Source: Escherichia phage LPEK22. Taken from it: 64,000 bases of DNA. Positions 31,619 to 53,480 of the stretch are shown here, one piece after another. The stretch lies in the sequence record OK283619.1. One strand, written 5' to 3'. A program made the position numbers and the translations under genes. Below the pieces are notes generated by a model that ran no database searches, was not told the DNA's origin, and worked only from the letters and a program-made list of their open reading frames with translations. How positions within the stretch are numbered: the stretch's first letter is position 1; every line of letters starts with the position of its first letter.

Positions 31619-31620
31619 AA

Positions 31621-31631
31621 CTAAATACCCC
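31621..31631 (+). promoter_or_regulatory. late promoter motif CTAAATACCCC with downstream 5'UTR hairpin
   Basis: CTAAATACCCC then inverted repeat TACCCCTA...TAGGGGTA immediately before ATG 31665. Confidence 0.5.
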
Positions 31632-31664: not shown

Positions 31665-34600
31665 ATGGCCAACAAACCAACACAGCCTCTTTTCCCTTTG
31701 GGTTTAGAAACTTCTGAGTCTTCGAACATAAAAGGCTTCAACAACTCCGGCACTATTGAGCATTCCCCTGGTGCCGTAATGACATTTCCTGAAGATACTG
31801 AAGTTACAGGTCTTCCATCTTCTGTACGTTACAATCCTGATAGTGATGAATTTGAAGGTTATTACGAAAACGGTGGTTGGTTGTCTTTGGGGGGCGGTGG
31901 AATACGCTGGGAAACGCTCCCTTACGCTCCCTCTAGCAATTTGTTAGAAGGTCGTGGTTATCTCATTAATAATACCACAGGGACATCTACAGTGGTTCTC
32001 CCTTCCCCTACGCGTATTGGGGATTCCGTTACTATTTGTGATGCTTATGGGAAATTTGCCACTTACCCATTGACCGTGTCTCCTTCTGGAAATAATTTGT
32101 ATGGCTCCACTGAAGACATGGCTATAACAACTGATAACGTATCAGCAACGTTCACTTGGTCTGGACCTGAACAAGGTTGGGTTATCACATCCGGCGTCGG
32201 TCTTGGCCAAGGCCGTGTCTACAGTCGTGAAATCTTTACACAAATTTTGGCGTCTGAAACAAGTGCTGTCACTCTCAATACTCCACCAACAATCGTGGAC
32301 GTGTATGCTGACGGAAAACGTCTTGCGGAATCCAAATATTCACTAGATGGGAATGTAATCACTTTCAGTCCTTCTTTGCCAGCCAACACAGAACTTCAGG
32401 TGATTGAATATACTCCGATTCAATTGGGTAATGGCGGTGGTTCTGGTTCTTCTACGATTACCTGGGTCTATAATGGGGGTTCAGCGATTGGCGGTGAAAC
32501 CGAAATCACGTTAGACATCGTTGTTGATGATGTTCCGGCCATTGATATAAACGGAAGTCGCCAGTATAAAAATCTGGGGTTCACATTCGATCCATTAACC
32601 AGTAAAATCACTCTTGCGCAAGAACTGGATGCAGAGGATGAAGTTGTTGTAATTATCAATGGAACGCCAAACATCTATAATCAAATTGATTATACTTTGC
32701 GGGAAGTGGCTCGTGTAACCAATGTTAAAGATACAGAGGTCGTTTATTTTAGTGTTGGTGCTGTGTTAAGCGGGTATAAAGTTATCTACGATAAAATAAC
32801 ACAGAGATCATATTTTATTCCAGAGTTACCGACTGGAACCACGGCAGTCAGCCTTAGTTCTTCGGCTGTGCTTGTACATTCTGCTGGTAGTGTTGATCTG
32901 GGCGCATTAGCTGTATCTCGTGAAGAATATGTTACCTTGGCTGGGACATTTGATTCTGGTGCTGTCATCAATACTAAAAATGAATTACTCACCCATACTG
33001 ATGGAAAGTATCGTTGGGATGGTACACTTCCTAAAACTGTAGCTGCTGGCTCAACACCTGCAACAACTGGAGGCGTTGGTTCGGGAGCGTGGTTGAGTGT
33101 TGGTGATGCCACTGCCCGCCAGTGGGTAGCTAATAATTATATCAATAGTAAATTCGAGAAGTTTGGGTCTTTCTTGCAAGGTTCAGTTTTAACCACCAAC
33201 GAGCAAGCTCTTGTTGATTCAAGTGGTCTTTTCTGGGTTAAATATGGTGCTATACAAAGTGGTGGTTATACAGTAGCGCCGGGAACTGTTCCAGACTATC
33301 CCGATTTTTACTGTGTTGGATATTTAACAGATTATGATTGGCAGTCTGTTACAAACTGGGGTGCTGATAACAACTATTCTATCGCAGATAAGATCGGTGT
33401 AGACGCGGTCGATGCTATAAACCTCGCAGGTTATCATGCGGAGAAACGTGCGGAACTATTCGGATCCCAGCAAGTTGTCATGGTTCCTGCTGGCACTTAT
33501 CTGTTGGATAAAACGACTCTTGTGGAAGGCACGGCGCATGGTCTGACTATTTATCGTAATCAGGAAGTTATGATTTTTCTTCGCAACAACGTTACTTTCA
33601 TCGGCGATGGCGACGCAACGTTACTGTATGTTGCCGATGGTGTTGTTGAGCGCAATAAGGAAAACGGGGGCACTAAAGGCTTTGTAGTTTTCGGTGATGG
33701 TATTCGTGAAATTCAGAACGCATATGTCCACGATATGCTAATTGATGAAAATGGTGACAATAACCTTGTCCCGCCATTGAACTGGTCTGGAGCACAAGCT
33801 CATTGTCCAGCAGTAGCTTGTTACGAAGGTAGTAATGGTGTGACTGTTTCTGGAGTTAACGTCAAGAATGCTCCTGGTGCAAACGTAATGGTATTCCAGG
33901 AAGCTCAGGCAGCGTTCAACAGCTACAATACGCGTGTAGAGAATTGCAACTTCTATCGCGTTGCTGACGCTGTGACTGGAAACAGTAACCTAATAGACCA
34001 CTCATCAATAAGAATTCATTCCGATGGCTACGTTATAAATAACGTTAAATGTATCCAGCCAACCATGTCAGACATGTGTACGGTATTTGAGTGTCATGGT
34101 AATGGGATCGTTGATGGATGCATCACCAAAAAAGCTCGCTACCCATTCCTGAAGGCTAACGACGGTGCTACATCGACATCTATAGTCACCTTCACAAATA
34201 ACGTCTGTGAGGACGCAGGTAGTGCTTTGGTTCTGGATACCGTACCTAACGTTACAACTGTTGCCAGATTTATTGGTAATACTGTAACGCTACGATCAGA
34301 AAAGCAAGTTATCGGGTATCCTAATACTGCGGCATTCACAACACAGCAGCCGTCTGTTTTGTCATCTGACCCAACCACTATTAATGCAATTATTTACTCT
34401 GCAAATAATAACATATTGCAAAAAAACAGAGCCGCAGATTGGACAACTGAACAAAAAGCTGCAAACGTTGCTTATGACCTGGACTATTTCAAAGAAGTTG
34501 TTAGTGAAAATAACACTTTCTCAGGTTTTTGGGGGTGTGTTCGCTTGGGTAAACAAAAAACAGGTGCTACTTTCAACAGCAATGACTCTTTTGTCTCTTG

Positions 34601-35168
34601 CGGGACCAACGGTTCACCTCAATTATCAGACAACACAGCCATAAGGTTTACCAATAAATTTGCCAACGATTATCTTGTTCACCTTGATGAAATGCATATT
34701 AAATGGAATATGACAAAATGTCAGTTTGGTGGTGTCCTGGGTTTATTGCAACAAGCAGCAGGAGTGACTGTTGGTGTTGTGCAATTCACTGCTGATATTA
34801 AAACAGATAGATGGATGCATCCAGCGCTTGGGATAGCTCCACTATCCGTACAGGATTACTACTTCAACATTGATGTATACAGTGATGTGAATACCAGTGA
34901 ACCTTTATACGGATACGCTGGTATTCATGGGCAAATTAATGTTGACTCGCCAACTCAACCATATGTTAAACAATTTTACAAATACAAACCAAACACCCAG
35001 AATGGATGGTGGTTTAAAGGCATTTTAGCAACTGACACAACTTCTGTTCCTGACAGGCCTTTTGGTAATGCGTCTGGTGACAGATATGATGTTATTGCTG
35101 GGGCATCAAATATTTTCGGGTATCGACATAATGGTACAACATGGGATGCAATGAAATTTACATCATAG
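31665..35168 (+). CDS. tailspike protein, long form (N-terminal anchor region + shared module + C-terminal catalytic/receptor-binding domain)
   Basis: 1167 aa; shares the module VKDTEVVYFSVGAVLSGYKVIYDKITQRSY...KYRWDGTLPK...GAWLSVGDA with the three downstream genes; Gly/Asn-rich C-terminal region. Confidence 0.75.
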   Translation: MANKPTQPLFPLGLETSESSNIKGFNNSGTIEHSPGAVMTFPEDTEVTGLPSSVRYNPDSDEFEGYYENGGWLSLGGGGIRWETLPYAPSSNLLEGRGYLINNTTGTSTVVLPSPTRIGDSVTICDAYGKFATYPLTVSPSGNNLYGSTEDMAITTDNVSATFTWSGPEQGWVITSGVGLGQGRVYSREIFTQILASETSAVTLNTPPTIVDVYADGKRLAESKYSLDGNVITFSPSLPANTELQVIEYTPIQLGNGGGSGSSTITWVYNGGSAIGGETEITLDIVVDDVPAIDINGSRQYKNLGFTFDPLTSKITLAQELDAEDEVVVIINGTPNIYNQIDYTLREVARVTNVKDTEVVYFSVGAVLSGYKVIYDKITQRSYFIPELPTGTTAVSLSSSAVLVHSAGSVDLGALAVSREEYVTLAGTFDSGAVINTKNELLTHTDGKYRWDGTLPKTVAAGSTPATTGGVGSGAWLSVGDATARQWVANNYINSKFEKFGSFLQGSVLTTNEQALVDSSGLFWVKYGAIQSGGYTVAPGTVPDYPDFYCVGYLTDYDWQSVTNWGADNNYSIADKIGVDAVDAINLAGYHAEKRAELFGSQQVVMVPAGTYLLDKTTLVEGTAHGLTIYRNQEVMIFLRNNVTFIGDGDATLLYVADGVVERNKENGGTKGFVVFGDGIREIQNAYVHDMLIDENGDNNLVPPLNWSGAQAHCPAVACYEGSNGVTVSGVNVKNAPGANVMVFQEAQAAFNSYNTRVENCNFYRVADAVTGNSNLIDHSSIRIHSDGYVINNVKCIQPTMSDMCTVFECHGNGIVDGCITKKARYPFLKANDGATSTSIVTFTNNVCEDAGSALVLDTVPNVTTVARFIGNTVTLRSEKQVIGYPNTAAFTTQQPSVLSSDPTTINAIIYSANNNILQKNRAADWTTEQKAANVAYDLDYFKEVVSENNTFSGFWGCVRLGKQKTGATFNSNDSFVSCGTNGSPQLSDNTAIRFTNKFANDYLVHLDEMHIKWNMTKCQFGGVLGLLQQAAGVTVGVVQFTADIKTDRWMHPALGIAPLSVQDYYFNIDVYSDVNTSEPLYGYAGIHGQINVDSPTQPYVKQFYKYKPNTQNGWWFKGILATDTTSVPDRPFGNASGDRYDVIAGASNIFGYRHNGTTWDAMKFTS
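32700..33125 (+). repeat. shared tailspike N-terminal module, copy 1
   Basis: DNA/protein similarity to 35325-35750 and 40360-40790; approximate coordinates. Confidence 0.6.
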
Positions 35169-35174
35169 TAAAAA

Positions 35175-35195
35175 CCCCGCTTCGGCGGGGTTCTT
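35175..35195 (+). terminator. intrinsic terminator CCCCGC-TTCG-GCGGGG
   Basis: Hairpin followed by TTCTT; same stem-loop reused at four other sites. Confidence 0.6.
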
Positions 35196-35231
35196 ATTAT
35201 ATCCATGTTTATAAAATTTTGTTAATTCAGA

Positions 35232-35242
35232 CTAAATACCCC
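35232..35242 (+). promoter_or_regulatory. late promoter motif CTAAATACCCC
   Basis: Motif followed by hairpin CCCCATA-N12-TATGGGG that ends 7 nt before ATG 35272. Confidence 0.5.
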
Positions 35243-35271: not shown

Positions 35272-37368
35272 ATGATTTCTCAATTCAATCAACCACGCGG
35301 CTCCACTTCCATAGAAGTTAACAAACAATCTATCGCTCGAAATTTCGGTGTCAAAGAAGACGAAGTCATTTATTTCACTGTCGGTATTGATCTCAGCGGA
35401 TTTAAAGTAATTTATGATGAGTCTACCCAACGGGCTTATTCTCTTCCTTCAGGTATTGTTTCAGGAACGACTGCGATAAGTCTGAACGAACAAGCCATCC
35501 TTACTCATTCTTCTGGCTCTGTTGATCTCGGGGAATTAGCAGTAAGCCGCGAAGAATATGTGACTTTACCTGGTTCTTTTAATTTCGGCCATACTATTAA
35601 TGTGAAAAATGAACTTCTTGTTCACGATGATGAAAAATATCGATGGGATGGTGCATTACCTAAAGTTGTTCCTGCTGGTTCAACTCCAGCATCAACTGGT
35701 GGCGTTGGTTTAGGTGCTTGGGTTAGTGTTGGTGATGCTGCATTTAGGCAGGAAGCTAATAAGAAATTCAAATATTCAGTAAAGTTATCTGATTATTCTA
35801 CATTACAGGATGCAGCGACAGCAGCCGTAGATGGATTGCTTATTGATGTTGACTACACTTTTACTGCAGATGAGAATGTAGATTTTAGCGGTAAAGTTTT
35901 AATCATTGAATGCAAAGGAAAATTCATTGGCGATGGTATGTTGGTTTGGAATGGTTTGGGTGCGGGCTCAGTAATTAAGAAACCGCACATGCATACTAAA
36001 ACTACGCCGTATACTGTTTACCGATTCGATGCAAACGGTAATTGGGTTACAGACCCAACACAAGTTCTGGCATCTGTTCAGCAGCGTTTGGATGTTGGAT
36101 ATAAGCCAAATATTAACGATTTAGATATTTGGGACGACCTTCCTGATAATGTAAAAAATCAGGTTGCTGGTGCTACTTTGCGAATAATGAGCGGCGATAA
36201 TATCATCGTAGAGAACCCAGAAGCTACATTTGGTGGTTATCTATTTACTTTATGTAATAGGATTCTTGTTAAGAATCCACGCAATTTTATTGCTTTGGAA
36301 TCGGGCATTACATTTGAGAACCATCATACAACTGCATGGGGTACTGGCAACTGGGTTGTTGGGGGTGAGATAAAATATGGCTCTGGTTCCGCTGTACTGT
36401 TCATTCGCAATGATGGTGGTACAGACCATGATGGTGGAGTAAGGGATTTAATCTCATACCGTGTTGGAGAATCAGGTATTAAAACCTATCAGAACGAAAT
36501 TGGAGGTCGTTCAGCCAGGAACTACCGTTTAGTGTTCGACAATATAACTACAATCCAGTGTTACTATGATGGTATTGATGTTAATGCTGACACAGGGTCG
36601 CCAACTGAACGTGTGGATGACTACTCACTCGCAGAGTATCCATGGTTCCACCTACCTACTCAACATATCATCCGTAATATTATTACTCGTGATTGTATGG
36701 GGATTGGTGCTTGGTGGGATGGTCAGAAAAATATTATTGATAATGTTGTTACTTATGAGGCCCATAAGGAAGGCGTCTTCGATAGGGGTACTAACAATGA
36801 TATTACTAACATTACTGTAGTAGGTGCGAATAAGGATTTAACTAACCTAAATCAGCTTACCTGTGAGGGAGGTAGTAGACTTCGTGGTATTAACATCCAT
36901 GCATATACTACACAAGGTTACGCTATATACGCTCCGTCTTCAGAAGTAAGTAATGTTTCCTGTGCTGGTTCCGGTACTAAGAAATTACTATGTACCTATA
37001 TAAGCGATATTCAGGGAGGTAATATCAATGTTCAGCATAGTGCCAACCAAATGACACTTGCAATGCAACCTGCTATGGGTGGTACTACAAACCCATCTTT
37101 GCTTATGACGGCAGATTGCCAGGTTGCTACACCAGGGGGTGAGGCAAGTATTGTCAAGCTTTCGGCAATTCAGGAGGGTGTACGTGTAGGTGAGTTTCAG
37201 CTTAACCGCTTAGGCTTTAAGCATATGAGTATACCTGCTGCCCCTTTACAATTACCAGAGAGCGCTCTGGAACATAATTCATCTATAGGATTCTTCTTCG
37301 GAAGTGACGGAGCATTGAGGTTGCTTGCTAAAAAACCAGATGGAAGTTATGTAACATACACACTTTAA
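35272..37368 (+). CDS. tailspike protein, short form (shared module at extreme N-terminus)
   Basis: 698 aa; begins directly with VKEDEVIYFTVGIDLSGFKVIYDESTQRAYSLP...KYRWDGALPK...GAWVSVGDA; distinct C-terminal domain. Confidence 0.75.
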   Translation: MISQFNQPRGSTSIEVNKQSIARNFGVKEDEVIYFTVGIDLSGFKVIYDESTQRAYSLPSGIVSGTTAISLNEQAILTHSSGSVDLGELAVSREEYVTLPGSFNFGHTINVKNELLVHDDEKYRWDGALPKVVPAGSTPASTGGVGLGAWVSVGDAAFRQEANKKFKYSVKLSDYSTLQDAATAAVDGLLIDVDYTFTADENVDFSGKVLIIECKGKFIGDGMLVWNGLGAGSVIKKPHMHTKTTPYTVYRFDANGNWVTDPTQVLASVQQRLDVGYKPNINDLDIWDDLPDNVKNQVAGATLRIMSGDNIIVENPEATFGGYLFTLCNRILVKNPRNFIALESGITFENHHTTAWGTGNWVVGGEIKYGSGSAVLFIRNDGGTDHDGGVRDLISYRVGESGIKTYQNEIGGRSARNYRLVFDNITTIQCYYDGIDVNADTGSPTERVDDYSLAEYPWFHLPTQHIIRNIITRDCMGIGAWWDGQKNIIDNVVTYEAHKEGVFDRGTNNDITNITVVGANKDLTNLNQLTCEGGSRLRGINIHAYTTQGYAIYAPSSEVSNVSCAGSGTKKLLCTYISDIQGGNINVQHSANQMTLAMQPAMGGTTNPSLLMTADCQVATPGGEASIVKLSAIQEGVRVGEFQLNRLGFKHMSIPAAPLQLPESALEHNSSIGFFFGSDGALRLLAKKPDGSYVTYTL
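35325..35750 (+). repeat. shared tailspike N-terminal module, copy 2
   Basis: See copy 1; approximate coordinates. Confidence 0.6.
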
Positions 37369-37385: not shown

Positions 37386-37406
37386 CCCCGCTTTGGCGGG
37401 GTTCTT
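37386..37406 (+). terminator. intrinsic terminator CCCCGC-TTTG-GCGGGG
   Basis: Hairpin followed by TTCTT. Confidence 0.6.
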
Positions 37407-37441
37407 ATTATACCTTTGTTCATAAATTTTATTAGTTCAGA

Positions 37442-37452
37442 CTAAATACCCC
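37442..37452 (+). promoter_or_regulatory. late promoter motif CTAAATACCCC
   Basis: Same arrangement as upstream of gene 35272. Confidence 0.5.
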
Positions 37453-37483
37453 ATATTGGCAAATCCTTATGGGGTATTTTCAA

Positions 37484-40249
37484 ATGACCAGAAATGTAGA
37501 AGAATTATTCGGCGGCGTAATCACAGCTCCCCACCAGATTCCTTTCACGTATAAATCAAATGTCGGTGGAGAAACTTTCCTTTCTTTGCCGTTCCATCCC
37601 GTCACTGGTGTTATCACAATCAACGGTGGTATGCAAGTTCCGTTAGACAACTTTGAAATCGAAGGAAATACATTGAATCTCGGACGCGCATTGTCCAAAG
37701 GCGATGTTGTGTATTGCTTATTCGATAAAATTCTTTCGCCAGAAGATACAGCCAAAGGTATCCGCATATACAAATTTCAGGCCGTAGGAGGTGAAACCGA
37801 GTTCACTCCTGATTTCACATCTTATGGAGTCCAATCTCTTTATATCGGTGGCGAGTACAAAACCCCCGAAATTGAATATTCCTATGACAGTACGACAGGA
37901 AAAGTATCTTTGCAAACTGCACTGACTGCAGGCGTTTGGGTAGTCGCTGAAATGTCTGTTAAACAACCGAATATCAGTCCGGCGTTTGACCGAAGTATTC
38001 AAGAAATCGCCCGTTCTGCTAATGTAAAAGACTCTGAAGTCATCGTTAGTACGGACACCATATCTTTGTTGGATGGGAAGAAAGTTGTTTATGACATAGC
38101 GGCGCAAACCAGTTATGGTTTACCAACCATTCCTGATGGTTCTGTCATTTCTTCTGTATCTGCTGGGAAATTGAATTACAATCCAGGTGATGTGCAGGTT
38201 GATTTGTTGCCTTTAGAAGATTCATTTATTAATGTGATAAACACTCTGGGGCGAAATGATGGTGCCAAGTATATTGGAGAATGCCATTCTGTTGCTGATC
38301 TCAGGAATACTGAACCCACTATGGATGGACAACGCATTATTCTTAAGCAACACACTGCGGGTACTCTTCTTGGTGGAGGGGTATTCCGTGCGTTAATTGA
38401 TGGTACAGGAAAGACTGATAATAACGGTACTGTGATCAAAACTGTTGGCGGCGCAGCATGGTTACGTGTTAATGCTGATAGAGTTAACCCATTCATGTTT
38501 GGTGCTTTGGGTGGTTCTAATGATGATACTATTCCAGTACAATCTTGTGTGGATAGTGGTAAGGCCACACAATTAACTGGTGTACATTACGTTAGCAATA
38601 TCCAGTTAAAATATAATACGTCGTCTATTTATGGGTCTGGATTACATTACTCAAGGTTGCATCAGTTGCCTTCTGCTACTGGGAATTGTATTACCATAAA
38701 AGATACATGCTCCCTTATTGTATTAGACGCCTTTGGGGTATATGGCACAGGTGCACAACAAGGCACGTCATTTACTGCGGGCACAACAGGTATCTATGTA
38801 GAAACTCCTTCAGGTCTCTCAGCCGATTATCCGTTCCACACTACCGCAGACCCAAGACGGGACTTGTGTATTTCTAAGGTCCATATAGCAGGTTTTGATG
38901 AATATGGGTTAAATATTGATAGTGGTAACTTTAGTGTTACTACAGATTCTCTTTTAGTCAACCACATCAATCAGGTGGGTGTCCGTTGTGCTACTACTGA
39001 TTGGACTTGGACAAATATCCAGGTTAATACCTGCGGTAAACAATGTCTAGTTCTTGATGGTTGTGGTAATGGTCGTATTATTGGCGGTAAATTCATTTGG
39101 GCTAACTGGCAACCTTATGGTACAGTAGGACAGTTCCCAGGCATTACTATTAATAACAGCCAGAATATGGTTATTAATGGTATTGAGGTACAAGATTGTG
39201 GCGGGAATGGTATTGAGATTAGCGAGTCATATTCAATTTCCATGAACGGATTGAACACCAATCGTAACGGCATCAATGCTAACAACACTTTCTACAACAT
39301 CGTATTTAACAAAAGTGATGCAGTTATCAACGGATTCGTAGGACTCAATTATGCCGCGAATAGTGGTTCAGGTGCTAACTCTAGTGCAGGCAATTTTCAG
39401 TTCCTGTCTAATGATTGTAGTGTCACCATTAATGGTGTGGTTGAGACTGGTTATATGGGCATTAACTTTATTGGTGATAACAATATTATCAACCCCACCA
39501 ATTCCGACCTGAGCATTAACGGATTGGTTAATTATTCCAAGACTGGTTTGCAAACCATGAACGAGACCCCTACATTTGATGGTGTTAGCACTACACCTGT
39601 TTATGTAAGTGTCCCATCTTCTGTAGGGCAAGTAAATGGTCTGAGACTATCACAAGCCAACAAAGATAAATTACTGTATTCAAGAACAGCAGGTCCAGAA
39701 GGTATTACCATGGCTGCTGTTGTAGTACCCACCATATCTGGAGCTGAAGTATTTAACTTCATGGCCATTGGTTCAGGGTTTAGTGATACATCCAACAGTC
39801 TTCATCTTCAATTAGTTATAGACGCTTCTGGAAAACAAACAATTGCTTTGCTATTGGGGGGCGATGGTACAACCCAAATTTTATCTGGGGATTTACCTAA
39901 CGACCTTAAACTACAAAGTGGTGTACCATATCATATAGCTATTGGTGCTAAACCTGGATATTTCTGGTGGAGTATTCTTAATATTCAGACGGGTAAGAGA
40001 ATCAGACGGTCATTCCGAGGCGCTTATTTAGCCGTACCATTTAATTCTATATTCGGATTAACTTCTTCATTAACATTCTTCTCGGATAGCAATGCTGGTG
40101 GGGATGCTTGTTCTGGGGTGGGCGCTAAAGTGTATGTTGGTATGTTCTCTTCCGAGAACGATTATGTAGCTTCACGATACTACAATCTGATTAATCCGGT
40201 AGACCCTACTAAGTTAATTAGTTACCGTATATTGGATTCTTCTATTTAA
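37484..40249 (+). CDS. tailspike protein, long form (diverged copy of the shared module)
   Basis: About 921 aa; start set at second in-frame ATG 37484 (MTRNVEELF) by analogy with the neighbouring gene, track start is 37469; diverged module IQEIARSANVKDSEVIV; Asn/Gly-rich C-terminal region. Confidence 0.7.
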   Translation: MTRNVEELFGGVITAPHQIPFTYKSNVGGETFLSLPFHPVTGVITINGGMQVPLDNFEIEGNTLNLGRALSKGDVVYCLFDKILSPEDTAKGIRIYKFQAVGGETEFTPDFTSYGVQSLYIGGEYKTPEIEYSYDSTTGKVSLQTALTAGVWVVAEMSVKQPNISPAFDRSIQEIARSANVKDSEVIVSTDTISLLDGKKVVYDIAAQTSYGLPTIPDGSVISSVSAGKLNYNPGDVQVDLLPLEDSFINVINTLGRNDGAKYIGECHSVADLRNTEPTMDGQRIILKQHTAGTLLGGGVFRALIDGTGKTDNNGTVIKTVGGAAWLRVNADRVNPFMFGALGGSNDDTIPVQSCVDSGKATQLTGVHYVSNIQLKYNTSSIYGSGLHYSRLHQLPSATGNCITIKDTCSLIVLDAFGVYGTGAQQGTSFTAGTTGIYVETPSGLSADYPFHTTADPRRDLCISKVHIAGFDEYGLNIDSGNFSVTTDSLLVNHINQVGVRCATTDWTWTNIQVNTCGKQCLVLDGCGNGRIIGGKFIWANWQPYGTVGQFPGITINNSQNMVINGIEVQDCGGNGIEISESYSISMNGLNTNRNGINANNTFYNIVFNKSDAVINGFVGLNYAANSGSGANSSAGNFQFLSNDCSVTINGVVETGYMGINFIGDNNIINPTNSDLSINGLVNYSKTGLQTMNETPTFDGVSTTPVYVSVPSSVGQVNGLRLSQANKDKLLYSRTAGPEGITMAAVVVPTISGAEVFNFMAIGSGFSDTSNSLHLQLVIDASGKQTIALLLGGDGTTQILSGDLPNDLKLQSGVPYHIAIGAKPGYFWWSILNIQTGKRIRRSFRGAYLAVPFNSIFGLTSSLTFFSDSNAGGDACSGVGAKVYVGMFSSENDYVASRYYNLINPVDPTKLISYRILDSSI

Positions 40250-40299: not shown

Positions 40300-42612
40300 A
40301 TGAACGAGATGTTTAGTCAAGGTGGTAAGGGTTCAACTGGAATCCTAACCAACAAACAAGCAGTAGCTAGACACTTTGGGGTTAAGCAATCTGAGATTGT
40401 TTACTTTTCGGTTGGTGTAGATTTAGGGGGGTATAAAGTTATCTATGACAAGGAAACGCAAAGAGCTTATTCCTTACCTGCTGGTATTGCTTCTGGTACT
40501 ACTGCCGTCAGTCTTAATACTGCTGCTGTACTTGTACATTCAGCAGGTTCTGTAGACTTAGGTGCATTAGCTGTATCTCGTGAAGAATACGTAACCTTAC
40601 CTGGTTCGTTTGATTCTGGCTCTACGCTTAACGTTAAAAATGAATTACTCACTTATACAGATGGTAAGTATCGCTGGGATGGAGCATTACCTAAAGCTGT
40701 CCCTGCCGGTTCAACTCCTGCATCAACTGGTGGTATTGGTCTTGGCGCGTGGGTTAGTGTTGGTGATGCTTCTTTGAGAACACAACTGGCAAACGGCAAT
40801 GGCTCGTTGATTGGAATTCACCCGCAGGGAACGCTAAATAATGTATTAACTGTGCGCACACCTGAACAGTACAATGCGGTAGGCGACGGAATAGATGACG
40901 ATACTTCAAAATTAAAAGAAATGCTTTCAGACATAAACAACGTTCCTGAAACACTTCCTGATGCTGCGGCTGTAAACTCGTACATGGAGCAAGTAGCAGT
41001 AAAAATTAACCTGACCAAGTTATACCGATTCACAGAGACGCTATACATACCCCCAGGTGTTTCAATTGAAATGCCAGCACCAAACTTTTTTACTCGTGAG
41101 TGTAAGCAAGGATTGTTTTATGACCCAGTAGATAAGAATACAGCAGCAATCAGCTTAATGGTGTACCGTAAACAACCTGATGGTTCATACAAACTCAATA
41201 AAGATGTAGATTATTATCCTACTGGGTTAGATATTGATAATGGGTACGCTGTAACATGTGCCAGAAAAATTGATATTAGTAACCTTAACCTGATTACAGC
41301 ACCAGGTGTAAAGGTTGGTGTTAAATGGATAGGTGGGGCAGGTTGCACTACAAAAGGGTTATCTATTGGGGAGAATACAGGGAGCGATATTACAACAGCA
41401 AGACTGCCAAGAGTAGGATTGTTGCAGTCAGCATCATGGGGTTCTGTTCATGAAAATCTACGCATCCTGTATAAAACTCAGGGCGCAGTGTTCATTGACT
41501 CTAATGGCGGTGCTACTGTAAACAATGCTTACATTTCCCGCCTTGGTAATACCAATGGTGAGCTAGAACAAGCGGTGTATAAACCAGCAGGGTTTACTGA
41601 GGTAGGTGATGTTGCCATCACTCAGTTTGCAGGTTCAGAGGTTAAGTTTAATAGCCCAATCATCGAACAAGCATCATTCGACTTTGTTCACGCTGGCCGG
41701 GATACTGATTCCTACGGTTTATTTATGGTTGATAAACCCCACATTGAATCATCTGGTGGGAAGAAAAAACATAGTTTCTACCTGATCAATACCAGTTCAG
41801 ATGTTACGTTGTCAGGGGTAGGTCTTTCCGGACAAGACCCTGATCTAGATAGTATGTACTTCCTTAAAAACTGCCCAGAAACTGCCCGAAATGTTGTCAG
41901 AGGACAAATGCCAGTAGGTGGTTTAAAACTCGTTAGAGGTACTGGTAACTACCCTACATTGGTACTCGACTGTACAAATATGGGAAGTCAATTCCAATTT
42001 GGGGAAGTTGGTGACATTTTCTATATCAAAGATGTTGTTGGTGTAAAAGCAGACACTCTATACATAGATCCTGTAAATGGTAATAACTACAACTGGGGAT
42101 TTAACGGAACCAAACCTATAAGAGAGCTACTTAATATTTCAAAGTTATGCCAGCTATTCAAGTGCAAAAGAGTTTATCTTAACCCAGGTGAGATAGCCAT
42201 TACCTCTAACACGGAGTTGCCGATGGTTAATTTTGAAGGTACTGGTAGCTTGAAGGCAAATTCTGGTAGTAGCTTCCTTATCAAAACCGGTGGGACATTA
42301 TCATTAATTGGGCTTGCTGGTATATCTACAGATGGCGGCCATATGTTTAGAGTCTCCACCACGGAAAAAGTAAACATACATACTAACTGCCCAGTGGATT
42401 CTGGTGCGGCCTATGTTGTACTAAGTGAGATTCAGGGTAATATTGAATACAGGCAATTATTCTATTCTGTAAATTGTTCTAAGTATGTAGGTGCAACAGC
42501 TGGACAAACTATCGCTGGTGTCATGGTTAAGACAGCGTCAAGACCGACAGGAATAGATGCTGATCCAGTTGATGGTAATACTTCTCTAACCTATAAAATT
42601 ATAGGATCATAG
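40300..42612 (+). CDS. tailspike protein, short form (shared module at N-terminus)
   Basis: 770 aa; N-terminus VKQSEIVYFSVGVDLGGYKVIYDKETQRAYSLP...KYRWDGALPK...GAWVSVGDA; distinct C-terminal domain. Confidence 0.75.
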   Translation: MNEMFSQGGKGSTGILTNKQAVARHFGVKQSEIVYFSVGVDLGGYKVIYDKETQRAYSLPAGIASGTTAVSLNTAAVLVHSAGSVDLGALAVSREEYVTLPGSFDSGSTLNVKNELLTYTDGKYRWDGALPKAVPAGSTPASTGGIGLGAWVSVGDASLRTQLANGNGSLIGIHPQGTLNNVLTVRTPEQYNAVGDGIDDDTSKLKEMLSDINNVPETLPDAAAVNSYMEQVAVKINLTKLYRFTETLYIPPGVSIEMPAPNFFTRECKQGLFYDPVDKNTAAISLMVYRKQPDGSYKLNKDVDYYPTGLDIDNGYAVTCARKIDISNLNLITAPGVKVGVKWIGGAGCTTKGLSIGENTGSDITTARLPRVGLLQSASWGSVHENLRILYKTQGAVFIDSNGGATVNNAYISRLGNTNGELEQAVYKPAGFTEVGDVAITQFAGSEVKFNSPIIEQASFDFVHAGRDTDSYGLFMVDKPHIESSGGKKKHSFYLINTSSDVTLSGVGLSGQDPDLDSMYFLKNCPETARNVVRGQMPVGGLKLVRGTGNYPTLVLDCTNMGSQFQFGEVGDIFYIKDVVGVKADTLYIDPVNGNNYNWGFNGTKPIRELLNISKLCQLFKCKRVYLNPGEIAITSNTELPMVNFEGTGSLKANSGSSFLIKTGGTLSLIGLAGISTDGGHMFRVSTTEKVNIHTNCPVDSGAAYVVLSEIQGNIEYRQLFYSVNCSKYVGATAGQTIAGVMVKTASRPTGIDADPVDGNTSLTYKIIGS
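40360..40790 (+). repeat. shared tailspike N-terminal module, copy 3
   Basis: See copy 1; approximate coordinates. Confidence 0.6.
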
Positions 42613-42618
42613 TAAAAA

Positions 42619-42640
42619 CCCCGCTTCGGCGGGGGTTTTA
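42619..42640 (+). terminator. intrinsic terminator CCCCGC-TTCG-GCGGGG
   Basis: Hairpin followed by GTTTTATTT. Confidence 0.6.
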
Positions 42641-42666
42641 TTTCTATCCTGTTTGTTGGCTGTATA

Positions 42667-42674
42667 CTAAATAT
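42667..42674 (+). promoter_or_regulatory. late promoter motif CTAAATAT (TATAAATG nearby)
   Basis: Upstream of ATG 42706; GGAG RBS. Confidence 0.4.
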
Positions 42675-42705
42675 CTCTATAAATGGCACTCTATGGAGCA
42701 TCAAA

Positions 42706-45700
42706 ATGCAATCTACAAATTTAAACCGTCGCCCGTATTGGGATGACTGGAATCCTGGGAAACGTTTTTCACGGATTCTTTTTCGTCCGATGCCTATCAA
42801 GGTTCAGACTCGAGAACTGAACCAGATGCAGACTATTCTTCAGGATCAAATTGAAAAACTAGGCAACCATTTGTTCAAAGATGGTTCTATGGTTATCCCT
42901 GGCGGTCTGACGATTACCAATGCCGCAGTCTCTTTGAAATTCACTTTGGCTGGTGGTACTGAATTCACTGATCTGGAAGGTATTTCTGAACTCTACGTTT
43001 TGGGGAAGGACAATAATGCCAAAGCACGTGTGTTGTCTCTTGAACGTGATCTGTCTGCTCCTGATACGATGCTGGCTATCCTTGAGATGACTGAAGCGGG
43101 TAATGCTGACGGATTCCATGTTAACGATAATCTGTATTTCCAGACTTACGACGTGAATGATAATTTCATTCGTATTGGTTATGGTATCGCAGCTGCAGTA
43201 ACTGGTTCTATCGTCGCTCGTATGACGAAAGGCGTTTACTTCATTCGTGGGATGTTCCTAGACGTTGATGACGCAACTCTTATCGTTGATAAAACTTCTA
43301 ACATCACTTCCCACCGCATCGGATTTAAAGTCACCGAAACTATTGTCACCGAAACAGAAGATGAATCCCTTTATTCAAATGCTCAGGGAACGATTAACTC
43401 CAAAGCCCCAGGCGCTCATCGTCTTCGAATAGATCTGGTCTTATCTCGATTTGATTATGACGCCGTGGTTGAAGATTTTGTTGAACTGGCCAAAGTTCGT
43501 GATGGTAAAATCCAGTCTATGGTGACTCAGTCCACCTATAATATTCTGGAAGACACGTTGGCCCAACGGACGTATGAAACCAACGGCGATTACAACGTTT
43601 CAACGCACCAGATCGACATCCGCGAACACCTGAAAGTCAATAACAATGGCGGGGTATTCAATGCCGCTGATGGCGGTGACGAGAGCAAATTTGTTTCTGT
43701 GATGAAACCAGGCATCTCCTATGTTCGCGGTCGACGTATCGAAAATGTCGGGGAAGAACTGGTTATTGTCGACAAGGCGCGGGATACCGATGTCCTGAAT
43801 AACACCCCTGTTGCGGTGGCCACAGGCAATTATCTGGTCACTAAGAATTCTAAAGGTGTGCCAGTGATATCCCGCACCGTTCGATACAAATTACTGAATG
43901 CTTCAGGCGTTACCCAGGCTACAGCACTTTGTATATCAGCTGAACGTAATTCAACAGAATTTCGTCTGTATATGCGCGACCTGGTCGTTACTGGCGATGC
44001 ATCCACTATCACCAAAGTGTCTTACGAAGAAAGCGGTATCACCATGTTCTCTGCTGAACTGGAATCCAATCAGTTTAACCAGAGTTCTATGATAGATCTG
44101 ATCTTCTCTCTTCCGGTATTCGGTGTCAAGACTTTAGCACCAACTGGCTCCGTGGATATCAACTACACTGTTCTCAGAACGTATAAAGTGACGTTGGACA
44201 ACAGCGGCGCGGGTTCTATTTCTGCTCCATTGGGATATAGTTTTTCCCCAGAATTTTCGTTGTACTCTGCAGCGAAATCTGATGGTTCTGAAGCGCAGTT
44301 CGATATCTCTGGTTCTTTGTCTTTGACTGGTTCTCCGGTCGGTTCGGCGCTGCAGATTTCTCTGGGCAGTGGTAATGCTAACCAGTCAATCAATTTGCTG
44401 GCGCTGATGATTCGTACCACGGCCACAATCAAAACGAAGACCATCACTGAAACAACTGAAACAGTGACATTCACCTCGCAGACTAGCCGTCCTTTGGCGA
44501 ATCACGATGGTTGGAAATTGGTGTCGGTCAAAAACGATACTGGCGCAGACGTGACCTCCAGCTTCGTCCTAGATGGCGGACAGCGTGATGCAGGGTATTA
44601 CAAGTCTAACTTGTTATCCAGCGCTGGAGCAATCTCAGGGACGTATACAGTGGTGTATCAATACTTCGCCCACAGTTCCGGTGATTTCTTCTCTGCTGAT
44701 TCGTATACTTCGATGGATTATAAAGATATCCCGAATTATACATCTTCTACATCAGGCGCGGTGTACGGCCTGGCAGATAGTTTGGATTTCCGTCCGAAAA
44801 TCACCAACGGAACTTCTGACACAGATATGGTTCGTCCAAACACTGCAGTTATTCTGGACACAGAATATTATCTGCCGCGTATCGACGCGATTTATCTGGC
44901 AGACAACGGCGTGTTTGGTGTGGCTCGTGGCATCAGTTCTAATAATCTGGCTTCTCCAGCAATCCCAGCGAACGCCATGCGTTTGTATGAATTGTTGATC
45001 CCGCCGTATACACCGAATATTGATGATATCCAAATTCGAACTATTGATAATCGTCGTTATACAATGCGCGATATCGGTAAACTGGAAACCCGTATTTCCA
45101 ATGTTGAATACTATACCTCTCTGTCACAGCTGGAATCTTCAGCGATGACACAGCAAGTGTTCGACCCCATTACGGGTAATCCTCGTTTCAAAAATGGTAT
45201 CGCAGCTGATCCGTTCAAAGACTTCCGGTTGATTGATGACTTGTCTGAAGATTGGATGGGTTCTATCGATACCGAAAACGGACGTCTGCGCCCGTTTGTA
45301 CAACAAAACGTTGTTGACATGACTCCGGTTGGCTGGAACAAAGTGATGGATGGGATGGTGGTTTGTAATTACACGCCTGAAATCTCGGTGAACCAAGAAT
45401 ATGCGACGACGACGATCAACGTTAACCCGTATGCAGTATTCAATTGGGAAGGTTTCTTGAAGATTAACCCGACCACAGACTACTGGTTCGAAAACTATTA
45501 TGTTGCGCCGCGTATTATCAATGAAACGATCAACACCCGTGGTACTGTACAAGAAGGTTCAGTGTACGGAACATGGCGTACTGTTTCTGTTTCTGATCGT
45601 GTTTGGGAACCGCATGGTGCTGGTGGTGTGTGGTGGGGATATCGTTACCGCACGACTGTTTCTGCCCGTGATGTCACCACATATACATACACGGACAAAA

Positions 45701-47544
45701 CAACCACGACCATGACTGGTGAACAGATTGTGGAGACGCAAGTTATCCCATACATGCGCGAGATCGATATTTCTTTCGACGCATCTGGGCTGCGACCTTT
45801 CACTCGTATGTATGCGTTCTTCTCTGGTCGTGACGTCAATCTGTATTGCAAACCGAATGGTGGTAATTTCGGAGACCCAATCACCACTGATGCCAATGGT
45901 GCTGTTAAAGGTGTATTCCGCGTTCCACAGAACGATACAATCAAGTTCAACACAGGCGACAACGTGTTCCGCTTAACGGATAGCCCTGTTGACAGTAAAT
46001 CTGCGGATGATACACTGACCAATGCAGAAATTGTTCATAAATCTTTCGGTAAGAAACAAGGTATTCAAAAGACCTTTGTCAACACTCGTGTCCTGGGTTA
46101 CACTGCTAGTACTCGCACCGAAACTTCTACTTCTGAAGTGGTTGTTGATCAATGGCGTGATCCGATTGCCCAATCGTTTATGGTGGCGACTAAGATTGGC
46201 GGCGAGTATATCGAAGGCGTGGAAGTATTCTTCTCTACCAAGTCACGTGATGTTCCGATCACTCTGGAAATTCGCGAGATGGAGAATGGCTTACCTTCTC
46301 ATACAGTCATTACTCGTAAAACTTTGAACCCGTCTGAAGTGACGATCTCTACAGACTCTTCCGGCGGTACGAAGTTCACCTTTGATTATCCGGTGTATCT
46401 GCAAGCATCGACTGAGTTTGCTATCGTTTTGTTGGCGAATACTCAGGATTACAACGCGTATATCGCGGAAATGGGCAAGAAAAACCTTCTGTCCAACGAA
46501 TATATCGCCAAACAACCGTATACAGGGGTGTTCTTCACTTCTTCAAACGGTTCTACATGGTCTCCAAACCAAATGGCTGATATGAAATTCCGCATATATC
46601 GTTGTAACTTCGCTGCGGGACAGAACGTTGTAACATTTGATCCGAAGCTCGGGCCAAAACAACGTCCGTTGGGATTGAACACTCTGAACTGCGTAAGCGG
46701 GTCTTCTGTTGTGACTGTGTTTGCAACTGGTCATGGTTTGGTTGCTGGGAACAATGTTACTCTTTCTGAATTGACAGGCGGTTGTGGCTTTACTCCTGAA
46801 CAACTTAACAAAACGTTTACTGTGACAGATGCGAGCTATACTTCATTCAAGATTGACGTCGGTACGGCAGCAGACAGCAATGGACAAATCGGTGGAGATA
46901 ATGCTTCTTTCTTGGGCAATTATCTAGTTGATATGTTCTATGCCAGCGTTACCAATTCGGCTCTGGAAGGTTCAATTCTGAAATTGGAATACCGTTATCG
47001 CGATGCCACTTCAAATTCTATGTCTGATTGGGCTGAGTTTGAAACTGACACTGACGTGGCATTGCCGACTGAAGGTATCTATCGCCAGGTCGGGGATTTC
47101 CAAATCCGAGCCACCATGACGCGTAGTGAAAACAACGTGTACACTGCTCCAATGATTGATGGCGATGACCTGAGCGTAATCTTCAACTCATACGGTGTGG
47201 ATCCATTTGAAGATGTCTTCAAATACGTGACAAAGGACATCGGATTTGATAATCCGTGTTCTACTGTGAAGTTGTTCTTTGGTGCAATGCTCCCATCTCA
47301 GTCTTCGATGAAGGTGCAGGTGAAACTTCTACGAGCAGGGCAAGAGATGGATAGTGTGGCTTGGGAAGACGTCACCCCAACTTCGCCTCTGGTTAACGAC
47401 GGTTCCACATTCTTTGAATATGAGTATGACAAGACTGTGGCGAGCAATAACCCGTTTGTTGGCCTGAAAGTCCGAGCGCTTGTACGGGGGAACCGCGTTG
47501 CTCCTCCATCATTCAAAGACTTCCGTCTTATTGCTCTGGCATAA
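42706..47544 (+). CDS. large virion-associated protein (1612 aa), function unknown
   Basis: Single uninterrupted 1612-aa ORF inside the late operon between tailspikes and neck genes; no motif recognised. Confidence 0.65.
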   Translation: MQSTNLNRRPYWDDWNPGKRFSRILFRPMPIKVQTRELNQMQTILQDQIEKLGNHLFKDGSMVIPGGLTITNAAVSLKFTLAGGTEFTDLEGISELYVLGKDNNAKARVLSLERDLSAPDTMLAILEMTEAGNADGFHVNDNLYFQTYDVNDNFIRIGYGIAAAVTGSIVARMTKGVYFIRGMFLDVDDATLIVDKTSNITSHRIGFKVTETIVTETEDESLYSNAQGTINSKAPGAHRLRIDLVLSRFDYDAVVEDFVELAKVRDGKIQSMVTQSTYNILEDTLAQRTYETNGDYNVSTHQIDIREHLKVNNNGGVFNAADGGDESKFVSVMKPGISYVRGRRIENVGEELVIVDKARDTDVLNNTPVAVATGNYLVTKNSKGVPVISRTVRYKLLNASGVTQATALCISAERNSTEFRLYMRDLVVTGDASTITKVSYEESGITMFSAELESNQFNQSSMIDLIFSLPVFGVKTLAPTGSVDINYTVLRTYKVTLDNSGAGSISAPLGYSFSPEFSLYSAAKSDGSEAQFDISGSLSLTGSPVGSALQISLGSGNANQSINLLALMIRTTATIKTKTITETTETVTFTSQTSRPLANHDGWKLVSVKNDTGADVTSSFVLDGGQRDAGYYKSNLLSSAGAISGTYTVVYQYFAHSSGDFFSADSYTSMDYKDIPNYTSSTSGAVYGLADSLDFRPKITNGTSDTDMVRPNTAVILDTEYYLPRIDAIYLADNGVFGVARGISSNNLASPAIPANAMRLYELLIPPYTPNIDDIQIRTIDNRRYTMRDIGKLETRISNVEYYTSLSQLESSAMTQQVFDPITGNPRFKNGIAADPFKDFRLIDDLSEDWMGSIDTENGRLRPFVQQNVVDMTPVGWNKVMDGMVVCNYTPEISVNQEYATTTINVNPYAVFNWEGFLKINPTTDYWFENYYVAPRIINETINTRGTVQEGSVYGTWRTVSVSDRVWEPHGAGGVWWGYRYRTTVSARDVTTYTYTDKTTTTMTGEQIVETQVIPYMREIDISFDASGLRPFTRMYAFFSGRDVNLYCKPNGGNFGDPITTDANGAVKGVFRVPQNDTIKFNTGDNVFRLTDSPVDSKSADDTLTNAEIVHKSFGKKQGIQKTFVNTRVLGYTASTRTETSTSEVVVDQWRDPIAQSFMVATKIGGEYIEGVEVFFSTKSRDVPITLEIREMENGLPSHTVITRKTLNPSEVTISTDSSGGTKFTFDYPVYLQASTEFAIVLLANTQDYNAYIAEMGKKNLLSNEYIAKQPYTGVFFTSSNGSTWSPNQMADMKFRIYRCNFAAGQNVVTFDPKLGPKQRPLGLNTLNCVSGSSVVTVFATGHGLVAGNNVTLSELTGGCGFTPEQLNKTFTVTDASYTSFKIDVGTAADSNGQIGGDNASFLGNYLVDMFYASVTNSALEGSILKLEYRYRDATSNSMSDWAEFETDTDVALPTEGIYRQVGDFQIRATMTRSENNVYTAPMIDGDDLSVIFNSYGVDPFEDVFKYVTKDIGFDNPCSTVKLFFGAMLPSQSSMKVQVKLLRAGQEMDSVAWEDVTPTSPLVNDGSTFFEYEYDKTVASNNPFVGLKVRALVRGNRVAPPSFKDFRLIALA

Positions 47545-47596
47545 ATAATGTTGAAAGGTGGGCGTAAAGCCCACCAAACCAATAGAGGATAAAGAT

Positions 47597-47845
47597 ATGC
47601 GTGGAGTGAAAGTACAGGGGCACGCATCCATGTTGAGAAGCAGTTCTTGCCCTGGCGCGATTATTTGCACCGATCACGCCGCTGGCATGGCTGCATTGCA
47701 AGCCCGTCAACGCAATGAAACCCGTGAAGCCACCATTGTTGAACAATCAAACCAGATATCTAATCTGGAGGCGACAATCAAAATGATGGCCGAAAAGTTG
47801 GGGATCGAAATCCCCGAAGGAGGTCAGAATGGCGACGCAAGCTGA
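47597..47845 (+). CDS. hypothetical coiled-coil protein
   Basis: Start at ATG 47597 (GAGGA RBS); Ala/Gln/Glu-rich. Confidence 0.45.
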   Translation: MRGVKVQGHASMLRSSSCPGAIICTDHAAGMAALQARQRNETREATIVEQSNQISNLEATIKMMAEKLGIEIPEGGQNGDAS

Positions 47846-48170
47846 AAGAACGGGGCTTGACATCCGTGGTATCTTAACCGCTGTCGTGGCTTCTGCATTG
47901 GTCTCGGCAGCATCGTTCCTTTGGTTCATGGGCGGGATGGAAACGCGCGTGAATGTATTGGAACGAGATTCCAACAAGATGGATCAAGTTCTTCAGAAAG
48001 TGAATGACATGAGTGAACGTATGGCGATCATGAATACTGACCTCGCATATGTCAAACAAAACATGGCTGAGTTAAAACTCAATAGCAGCAGTCTTTCAGA
48101 TGATGTTCGCACACTGCGGATTACTGTATCTGATTTGCAGCAAAAGGGGAATAACAATGGCCGTCAATAA
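47829..48170 (+). CDS. membrane-anchored coiled-coil protein
   Basis: 113 aa; TM-like segment ILTAVVASALVSAASFLWFMGG then heptad-like sequence. Confidence 0.5.
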   Translation: MATQAERTGLDIRGILTAVVASALVSAASFLWFMGGMETRVNVLERDSNKMDQVLQKVNDMSERMAIMNTDLAYVKQNMAELKLNSSSLSDDVRTLRITVSDLQQKGNNNGRQ

Positions 48171-49150: not shown

Positions 49151-49181
49151 TTATCAATTCCTCAAAAGAATTAATGATTGA

Positions 49182-49190
49182 CTAAATACC
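49182..49190 (+). promoter_or_regulatory. late promoter motif CTAAATACC
   Basis: About 22 nt upstream of ATG 49212. Confidence 0.45.
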
Positions 49191-53428: not shown

Positions 53429-53431
53429 TCA

Positions 53432-53439
53432 CTAAATAT
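53432..53439 (+). promoter_or_regulatory. late promoter motif CTAAATAT
   Basis: About 42 nt upstream of ATG 53481. Confidence 0.45.
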
Positions 53440-53480
53440 CTTTCAAATTGAGCGAAACTCTACCGAGAAGGAATAACATT

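Follow-up and report, generated by a model that had tools for sequence, protein, structure and literature searches.

VriC of a Kuttervirus genome, a probable member of the DUF4815 tripod family of baseplate proteins

The closest described system to the gene considered here is the baseplate of Staphylococcus phage phi812 (812 in the following; structure 9EUF, EMBO J 2026, PMC13433997), whose parts are the wedge gp116, the arm scaffold gp117, the arm segment gp118, the tripod gp119, the coupler gp122 and the receptor-binding proteins (RBPs) RBP1 gp121 and RBP2 gp123. Twelve tripod trimers, two per baseplate arm, dock via N-terminal flap-domain loops on the arm scaffold together with the arm segment. 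Upon attachment the outer tripods rotate by ~170° and all tripods refold; their glycan-binding C-terminal domains then face the cell, with base, fin, leg and C-terminal anchor/hook directed at its wall, and tripod-tripod contacts stabilise the contracted baseplate (PMC13433997). Here, we followed up vriC, a gene encoding 1612 amino acids (aa) on a 64,000 nt stretch of Escherichia phage LPEK22 (OK283619.1) that we call the window. Our analysis indicates that this gene is very probably the VriC/VrlC gene of the Ackermannviridae, that its product belongs to the DUF4815 'tripod' family and that it is a component of the baseplate or virion.

VriC as such is already known; it has been catalogued widely, and its resemblance to proteins of A511 and phi812 has been published. 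In A511, the pyramids of the double-layered baseplate consist of Gp106, which turns round to face the cell wall upon contraction, and VrlC was immunolocalised to the baseplate; VrlC is also abundant in the ΦM12 proteome, and a correlation of vrlC with large double-ringed baseplates has been published. A 2024 review, which has a figure based on the ViI and AG3 proteomes, proposed that VriC forms prong-like structures beneath the baseplate, resembling the A511/phi812 baseplate proteins. In the Ackermannviridae literature, vriC serves as a conserved landmark beside the tailspike (tsp) cluster.

Homology of VriC to the solved tripod protein

A first-pass annotation of the gene, made from the sequence letters, had seen no recognisable motif in the protein and could not place it by sequence. 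Neither statement holds. Pfam DUF4815 (PF16075) matched VriC with an E value of 5.7e-61 (206.9 bits versus a cut-off of 30) in three stretches that are split by insertions, the best of which covers residues 582-930, and PHROG 358 matched at E=0. A phmmer search against all chains of the Protein Data Bank (PDB; E<=1) returned a sole match, 9euf_0, with an E value of 8.3e-52 over four colinear stretches. This chain of the phi812 baseplate is a 1152-aa 'DUF4815 domain-containing protein' (ORF65), and the same sequence is present in 9EUF, 9EUI, 9EUJ and other entries. In Kayvirus GH15 the gene order is baseplate-J wedge, 1019 aa, 173 aa, 1152 aa (DUF4815), a 52-aa open reading frame (ORF), 609 aa, 123 aa and 458 aa. 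Since the 1152-aa DUF4815 gene occupies the gp119 position of the 812 order, the solved chain is the tripod protein gp119; in length and position the latter is identical to GH15 ORF117.

For a full-length comparison, 38 VriC-type proteins of full length, sharing 31-85% identity with the query, were combined in a profile that was aligned to the GH15 tripod. hhalign reported a probability of 100% and an E value of 4e-71 (also 1.7e-70) over 1097 columns with 27% identity, pairing VriC 3-1606 with tripod 2-1145 of 1152 aa. The ~460 extra residues of VriC fall into three insertions (85-197, 361-574 and 1315-1415), of which 361-574 is the largest with a net gain of about +170 to +175 residues. Full-length homology to a characterised baseplate or fibre protein, the outcome that the first-pass annotation had itself named as speaking against its reading, was thus obtained with the phi812 tripod. 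The comparison that it had proposed with T4 gave no match: the T4 baseplate and fibre proteins (gp7, gp8, gp9-gp12, gp34-37) showed no phmmer similarity among PDB chains at E<=1, where the phi812 tripod was the only protein found, and no T4 baseplate chains were among the top Foldseek matches of either VriC model described below.

At the DNA level, vriC was 99.8% identical to Salmonella phages Se_EM1, Se_EM3 and BPS7 and was found at full length in 231 phage records, and the protein was 100% identical in Se_EM1 and Salmonella phage selz. Because of this near-identity, we assign the window on sequence grounds to a Kuttervirus (Ackermannviridae). The name given in the records is usually VriC/VrlC; the labels range from 'virulence-associated VriC protein' and 'VrlC protein' to 'structural protein', 'tail fiber protein' and 'hypothetical protein'. 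Relatives of VriC were present in 1692 phage records, including those of Synechococcus (377), Staphylococcus (342), Bacillus (246), Salmonella (164), Vibrio (73), Enterococcus (70) and Listeria (54) phages, among others. Full-length tblastn matches were restricted to Ackermannviridae-like phages; cyanophage matches ranged from residue 2 to ~1312 and those of Herelleviridae covered ~677-1313. The seven relatives closest to VriC are 58-85% identical overall; over stretches of 40 residues their identity to the query ranged from 58 to 95%, and no variable C-terminal cassette was seen. Such even conservation fits a conserved part of a machine and not a specificity determinant.

The alignment and the predicted structures divide VriC into the following blocks, all on the + strand; the labels refer to alignment blocks versus the tripod and not to the domain names of the 812 paper (pLDDT, predicted local distance difference test).

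42706..47544, + strand: VriC/VrlC gene, 1612-aa DUF4815 tripod homologue (812 gp119 / A511 Gp106), from Pfam, PHROG, phmmer, hhalign and Foldseek
42706..42957, + strand: residues 1-84, conserved N-terminal part including a helix (36-56); 39% identity versus tripod 2-71
42958..43296, + strand: residues 85-197, β-rich, insertion 1, mostly extra versus the tripod (gaps +23, +40; pLDDT 84-90)
43297..43785, + strand: residues 198-360, conserved DUF4815 core, aligning with tripod 99-242
43786..44427, + strand: residues 361-574, β-rich domain(s), insertion 2, largely absent in the tripod (gaps +43, +19, +22, +69; pLDDT ~79-92)
44428..45195, + strand: residues 575-830, best-conserved DUF4815 stretch with a long helix at 787-815, aligning with tripod 280 to ~500
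45196..45762, + strand: residues 831-1019, end of DUF4815, aligning with the mid-tripod (pLDDT <50 over much of it in the monomer)
45763..46647, + strand: residues 1020-1314, predicted β-sandwiches of carbohydrate-binding-module (CBM) and lectin type; 1147-1314 with 32% identity versus tripod 787-954
46648..46950, + strand: residues 1315-1415, small β domain, insertion 3, absent in the tripod (gaps +13, +15, +61; pLDDT ~90)
46951..47544, + strand: residues 1416-1612 and stop codon, C-terminal all-β part, aligning with tripod 967-1145 (anchor/hook end)

Invariant residues of the N-terminal segment include P10, Q34, R36, E37, Q42 and Q48. The least conserved part among distant relatives is residues 85-197 (15-25% identity), and the part most widely shared in the family is 1147-1314. 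The only other Pfam signal, carried by insertion 3, was a weak lead, Phage_spike_2 at 1351-1421 (E 0.032, 15 bits versus a cut-off of 25). A LysM-like C-terminal hook domain was reported for the 812 tripod (PMC13433997); neither LysM nor any other Pfam family matched the C-terminal region of VriC at E<=1, and the GH15 tripod itself gave no Pfam LysM match at E<=0.1 either.

VriC was modelled with AlphaFold2 as two overlapping monomer segments, each from an alignment of 81 sequences. Model m65931c79cf34 (residues 1-1060) had a mean pLDDT of 75.4, good for 1-780 and poor for 831-1019, and model mf23287ceaf77 (residues 700-1612) one of 80.1. In Foldseek searches of the PDB, the N-terminal model matched 9eui_Q (E 2.1e-22), 9euj_G (9e-15) and 9euf_0 (1.3e-7), and nothing but phi812 baseplate chains appeared below an E value of 1e-3. 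The C-terminal model matched 9euf_0 with an E value of 5.7e-34 and a TM score of 0.50 over 919 columns, a CBM22 tandem with a probability of 1.0, as well as Cwp84, CBM61 and CBM16 folds. In the 812 tripod, the CBM16/61 folds make up the base and fin domains and the Cwp84 fold the leg (PMC13433997), and CBM folds were also reported for A511 Gp106 homologs in the Deep-Blue/Vp4 study. According to these models, VriC shares the fold of the tripod and carries CBM/lectin-like β-sandwiches of the same type in its C-terminal half.

We noticed that the two models differ in their best-fitting state: the N-terminal model fits best the post-contraction phi812 tripod (E 2e-22 versus 1e-7 for pre-contraction), the C-terminal one the pre-contraction tripod (E 6e-34 versus 2e-21). 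This split is probably an artefact of modelling split monomers, and it is a reminder that the tripod family has two very different conformations.

Gene neighbourhood and transcription signals

The gene is a single unbroken ORF on the + strand that starts with ATG and has 1612 codons plus a stop codon; tandem repeats were sought in it and none were found. The first-pass annotation had described one uninterrupted ORF of 4.8 kb, the largest in the window, between the tailspike array and the neck genes, and this description holds: the runner-up, the tailspike protein gene TSP4, encodes 1167 aa, TSP1 lies upstream, and two small ORFs precede a gp13-like gene downstream. Salmonella phage S117, which is near-identical and annotated, and Pfam scans of the window ORFs place vriC in the baseplate/receptor-binding module, after gp6-like, wedge and RBP genes, with four tailspike genes directly on its 5′ side (TSP4, 31665-35168; TSP3, 35272-37368; TSP2, 37469-40249; TSP1, 40300-42612). 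On its 3′ side come the two small ORFs, then neck genes resembling gp13, gp14 and gp15, and after these the terminase and sheath genes. The vriC gene closes the baseplate/receptor-binding gene block, stands under its own late-promoter-like motif and is followed by a small conserved partner ORF. The signals and small ORFs around it are the following.

42619..42634, + strand: G+C-rich hairpin and T-run, terminator-like, closing TSP1; CCCCGCTTCGGCGGGG followed by GTTTTATTT
42666..42675, + strand: late-promoter-like motif ACTAAATATC, 31 nt 5′ of the vriC start codon
42695..42698, + strand: GGAG ribosome-binding site, 7 nt before the vriC ATG, read from the sequence
47597..47845, + strand: 82-aa ORF, 'virion structural protein' (PHROG 4322, E 2.4e-47; PHROG 473, E 2.9e-5, a modest match)
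47829..48170, + strand: 113-aa ORF between the 82-aa ORF and the gp13-like gene (PHROG 3961, E 4e-62)

In the window, ACTAAATAYC was counted six times versus 0.21 expected, and none of 100 shuffles reached six. All copies are on the + strand (31620-31629, 35231-35240, 37441-37450, 42666-42675, 49181-49190 and 53431-53440) and lie just 5′ of late structural genes, namely TSP4, TSP3, TSP2, vriC, the gp14-like gene and the sheath gene; TSP1 is without a copy. Judged by this placement, ACTAAATAYC is likely a late-promoter element of the phage, and it resembles the late-promoter consensus described for CBA120-like phages. We had also considered the T4 late promoter TATAAATR, of which 4 copies were found versus 5.1 expected in the window; as there was no enrichment, ACTAAATAYC was adopted instead. 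A scan for sigma-70 promoters in and around vriC found 12 versus 10.8 expected, which corresponds to chance.

A near-identical hairpin, AAAACCCCGCTT(C/T)GGCGGGG plus T-run, follows TSP4 (~35180-35200), TSP3 (~37390-37410) and TSP1 (42619-42634). Therefore, each tailspike gene could be bracketed by the same terminator and promoter sequences in a cassette-like manner, an arrangement by which the exchange of tailspikes through recombination is possibly favoured.

The start of the 82-aa ORF is the ATG at 47597 in annotated records and the GTG at 47558 in a mechanical ORF list. A small ORF of 67-82 aa with a coiled-coil tail directly follows the DUF4815 gene in the Kuttervirus, a Vibrio Ackermannviridae phage, a T4-like cyanophage and a metagenomic contig (L005); the coordinates in the compared relatives are L003:13918-14121, L004:14323-14571 and L005:13014-13223. 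PHROG 473 matched this ORF in Vibrio phage BX-1 (E 3.5e-8), cyanophage S-MbCM100 (E 1.6e-34) and L005 (E 1.3e-9). Pairwise BLASTP between the 82-aa ORF of the window and the cyanophage ORF gave no match, and the link consists of their shared PHROG 473 profile matches. The DUF4815 gene and the small ORF form a conserved two-gene module; the product of the small ORF possibly serves as a chaperone or as part of the tripod tip. A tiny ORF is also found at the same place in A511 (Gp107) and in Kayviruses (the 52-aa ORF of GH15), and no sequence link of either to the 82-aa ORF was found.

The 113-aa ORF is possibly part of the vriC module; BX-1 has an ORF of equal size at the corresponding place, which matched PHROG 3961 weakly (E 6.6e-4). 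The order wedge, variable RBP genes, DUF4815, small ORF, second small ORF and gp13 is also present in BX-1 and L005, and in S-MbCM100 wedge genes, VrlC and two small ORFs are followed by further structural-protein genes. The contig L005 (GCA_033721355.1, JAWWAS010000001.1, 148,459 bp) is filed under a 'Nitrosopumilaceae archaeon' metagenome-assembled genome. Its gene order is gp25, gp6, wedge, gp8, DUF4815, gp13, gp14, gp15, terminase and sheath, and because this order is T4-like/Ackermannviridae-like, L005 probably represents a bacteriophage genome that was binned wrongly. The gene for its large terminase is apparently split and has a weak LAGLIDADG match, so that a homing endonuclease or an intein may be present.

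Two further baseplate proteins are encoded upstream of the tailspikes. The 295-aa 'Baseplate_wedge' protein (29538-30425, + strand) matches only positions 1-272 of the 978-position PHROG 3465 profile, which means that its relatives elsewhere are much longer. The 396-aa protein (30428-31618, + strand) lies between the wedge gene and TSP4, gives a weak, sub-threshold match (E 8e-4) to BppL_N, the N-terminal domain of a lower baseplate protein, and contains repeated 'TYNTKM..LD.SI' segments; it could serve as a short fibre or as an adaptor. BLASTP of both proteins versus the GH15 arm scaffold was not significant (E 0.35 to 1.4), and phmmer of both versus the PDB gave chance-level matches only. 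A 56-residue stretch (174-226) of the 295-aa protein resembles GH15 arm scaffold 64-116 with 34% identity (E 0.37, not significant). The 295-aa protein may be a wedge-embedded counterpart of the tripod's docking partner.

Candidate roles of VriC

The first-pass annotation had taken the position of the gene as a sign of a virion component, and this view gains support from the baseplate/tail module in which vriC lies, from relatives that are solved baseplate proteins and from mass spectrometry of CsCl-purified virions of the Vi01-like Kuttervirus Sajous1, in which VriC was among the top five proteins with 311 spectra (PMC10892097). By analogy with 812, VriC likely forms a trimeric complex at the periphery of the baseplate. 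Several points weigh against carrying the tripod comparison over to this phage. About 28% of VriC is without a counterpart in the solved tripod, the model is of low confidence for residues 831-1019, and no homologs of the arm scaffold or the arm segment were detectable in the window. Neither the PDB nor the literature that we searched (including Kuttervirus/CBA120 cryo-electron microscopy) yielded a baseplate structure for the Ackermannviridae, so that location, stoichiometry and trimer state rest here on analogy. Moreover, the host is Gram-negative, and the peptidoglycan-binding role of the 812 hook is thus not simply transferable to VriC.

By the same analogy, it is an evenly balanced question whether VriC acts as a secondary adhesin and contraction trigger. 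VriC trimers would sit at the baseplate periphery, for which the downward-pointing 'prongs' seen by electron microscopy are the published candidate. The four tailspikes would bind and cut the O-antigen or capsule first, and the C-terminal β-sandwiches of VriC would then contact a conserved surface glycan. Finally, a rearrangement of VriC would help to fix the baseplate irreversibly to the cell and to trigger contraction. In a more specific version, which we put forward tentatively and hold to be somewhat short of probable, the VriC trimers would be the prongs and act as a second-stage sensor: the three lineage-specific insertions (85-197, 361-574 and 1315-1415) and the C-terminal CBM-like domains would bind a conserved outer-membrane glycan such as the lipopolysaccharide core, refolding would lead to spike release and sheath contraction, and the docking partner would be unrelated to the Herelleviridae arm scaffold. 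If true, the mechanism of phage 812 would reach over the Gram divide, and the cyanophages with the same two-gene module would share it as well.

A purely architectural role, in which VriC is a brace or spacer that shapes the double-layered baseplate and supports the branched tailspike complex with no receptor binding or signalling, appears doubtful but deserves weight. Uniform conservation across phage genera with different hosts would suit such a role, the published correlation between vrlC and double-ringed baseplates requires a structural role only, and in 812 it is contacts between tripods that stabilise the contracted baseplate. However, the C-terminal half of VriC is predicted to consist of CBM/lectin-type β-sandwiches, which in 812 and A511 are turned to the cell wall on contraction, and the retention of these domains from Herelleviridae to Ackermannviridae argues for a ligand. 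Host range, in turn, goes with the variable genes, the four tailspikes, while VriC is without a variable C-terminal module and is ~84-85% identical in Klebsiella and Dickeya phages and in a further Salmonella phage. These findings make it improbable that VriC is the primary receptor-binding tail fibre setting host range, despite its CBM-like domains, the annotation of some relatives as 'tail fiber protein' or 'adsorption associated tail protein' and a paper calling VriC 'previously associated with host range' (PMC10892097); in the work cited there for host range, vriC is merely a conserved landmark by which the tsp cluster is located.

That VriC could be a fifth tailspike or depolymerase acting on surface polysaccharide is very improbable: the weak Phage_spike_2 match at 1351-1421 (E 0.032) that would favour it stays under the cut-off (15 versus 25 bits), endosialidase fold matches span only the small β domain (138/658 residues), the Tail_spike_N domain found by Pfam in TSP1 and TSP4 is lacking in VriC, and no glycosidase or lyase family of Pfam was matched. 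It is scarcely conceivable that VriC is a 'virulence-associated protein' that affects bacterial pathogenicity instead of being a phage part. Only the name speaks for this, with the VriC/VrlC label in many records and the listing of VrlC among the 'putative virulence genes' of Wolbachia WO prophages. Yet vriC is embedded in the late structural genes of a strictly lytic phage, its product is present in virions (Sajous1, PMC10892097) and its homolog is a resolved baseplate subunit. The name goes back to the vrl locus, which in Dichelobacter nodosus is a prophage-like island, and the 'virulence' label is an annotation relic.

Annotations such as 'virulence-associated protein', 'hypothetical protein' and 'tail fiber' can be replaced by 'baseplate tripod-family protein (DUF4815)', and the solved phage 812 structure can serve as a template for the VriC of Ackermannviridae with the exception of the ~460 inserted residues. 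When Kuttervirus tailspikes are engineered for diagnostics or therapy, the remainder of the baseplate is taken to be host-neutral. The role and docking of the tripod family in Gram-negative-infecting phages and cyanophages is a reasonable problem for structural biology.

Comparison with known systems

The VriC of other Ackermannviridae (CBA120, ViI, Det7, S117, AG3, Limestonevirus, Taipeivirus and the Vapseptimavirus Vibrio phages) is the same gene. Identity to the VriC of the window is 99-100% within Kuttervirus, ~84-85% for Klebsiella and Dickeya phages, a value also reached by one further Salmonella phage, and 37-39% for the Vibrio phages, which are without the four-tailspike array upstream of vriC. 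The VrlC of cyanophages (Kyanoviridae), exemplified by S-MbCM100_086, likewise carries DUF4815 (E 1.1e-60), shows ~33% identity to VriC 2-~1312 by tblastn, comes after baseplate wedge genes and is followed by a PHROG 473 small ORF. However, with 2442 aa it is much longer, its C-terminal part is unmatched, it follows a gp8-like gene and not tailspikes, and structural-protein genes instead of gp13 come after it.

A511 Gp106, the 'VrlC homolog', belongs to the same family; Gp106 itself was compared by description, and Listeria phage relatives matched VriC 676-1312 by tblastn. The small gene gp107, encoding a putative chaperone, comes next to it, comparable to the 82-aa ORF after vriC. In contrast to VriC, Gp106 is shorter, belongs to a phage of a Gram-positive host and is attached to the Gp105 fibre with the RBP Gp108.

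The 812 tripod gp119 resembles VriC in its N-terminal DUF4815 part and in the CBM16/61-type and Cwp84-lectin-type β-sandwiches of the C-terminal half, as far as the latter are predicted for VriC by the models. The two proteins differ in length (1152 aa versus 1612 aa in VriC, with its three insertions) and share 27% identity over the aligned columns. Their surroundings differ as well: the neighbours of vriC are four β-helical tailspikes and its small downstream ORF matches PHROG 4322/473, whereas the 812 tripod has RBP1 and RBP2 as neighbours and PHROG 1074 stands beside the Kayvirus tripod. The phage with VriC infects a Gram-negative host and the phage with the 812 tripod a Gram-positive one.

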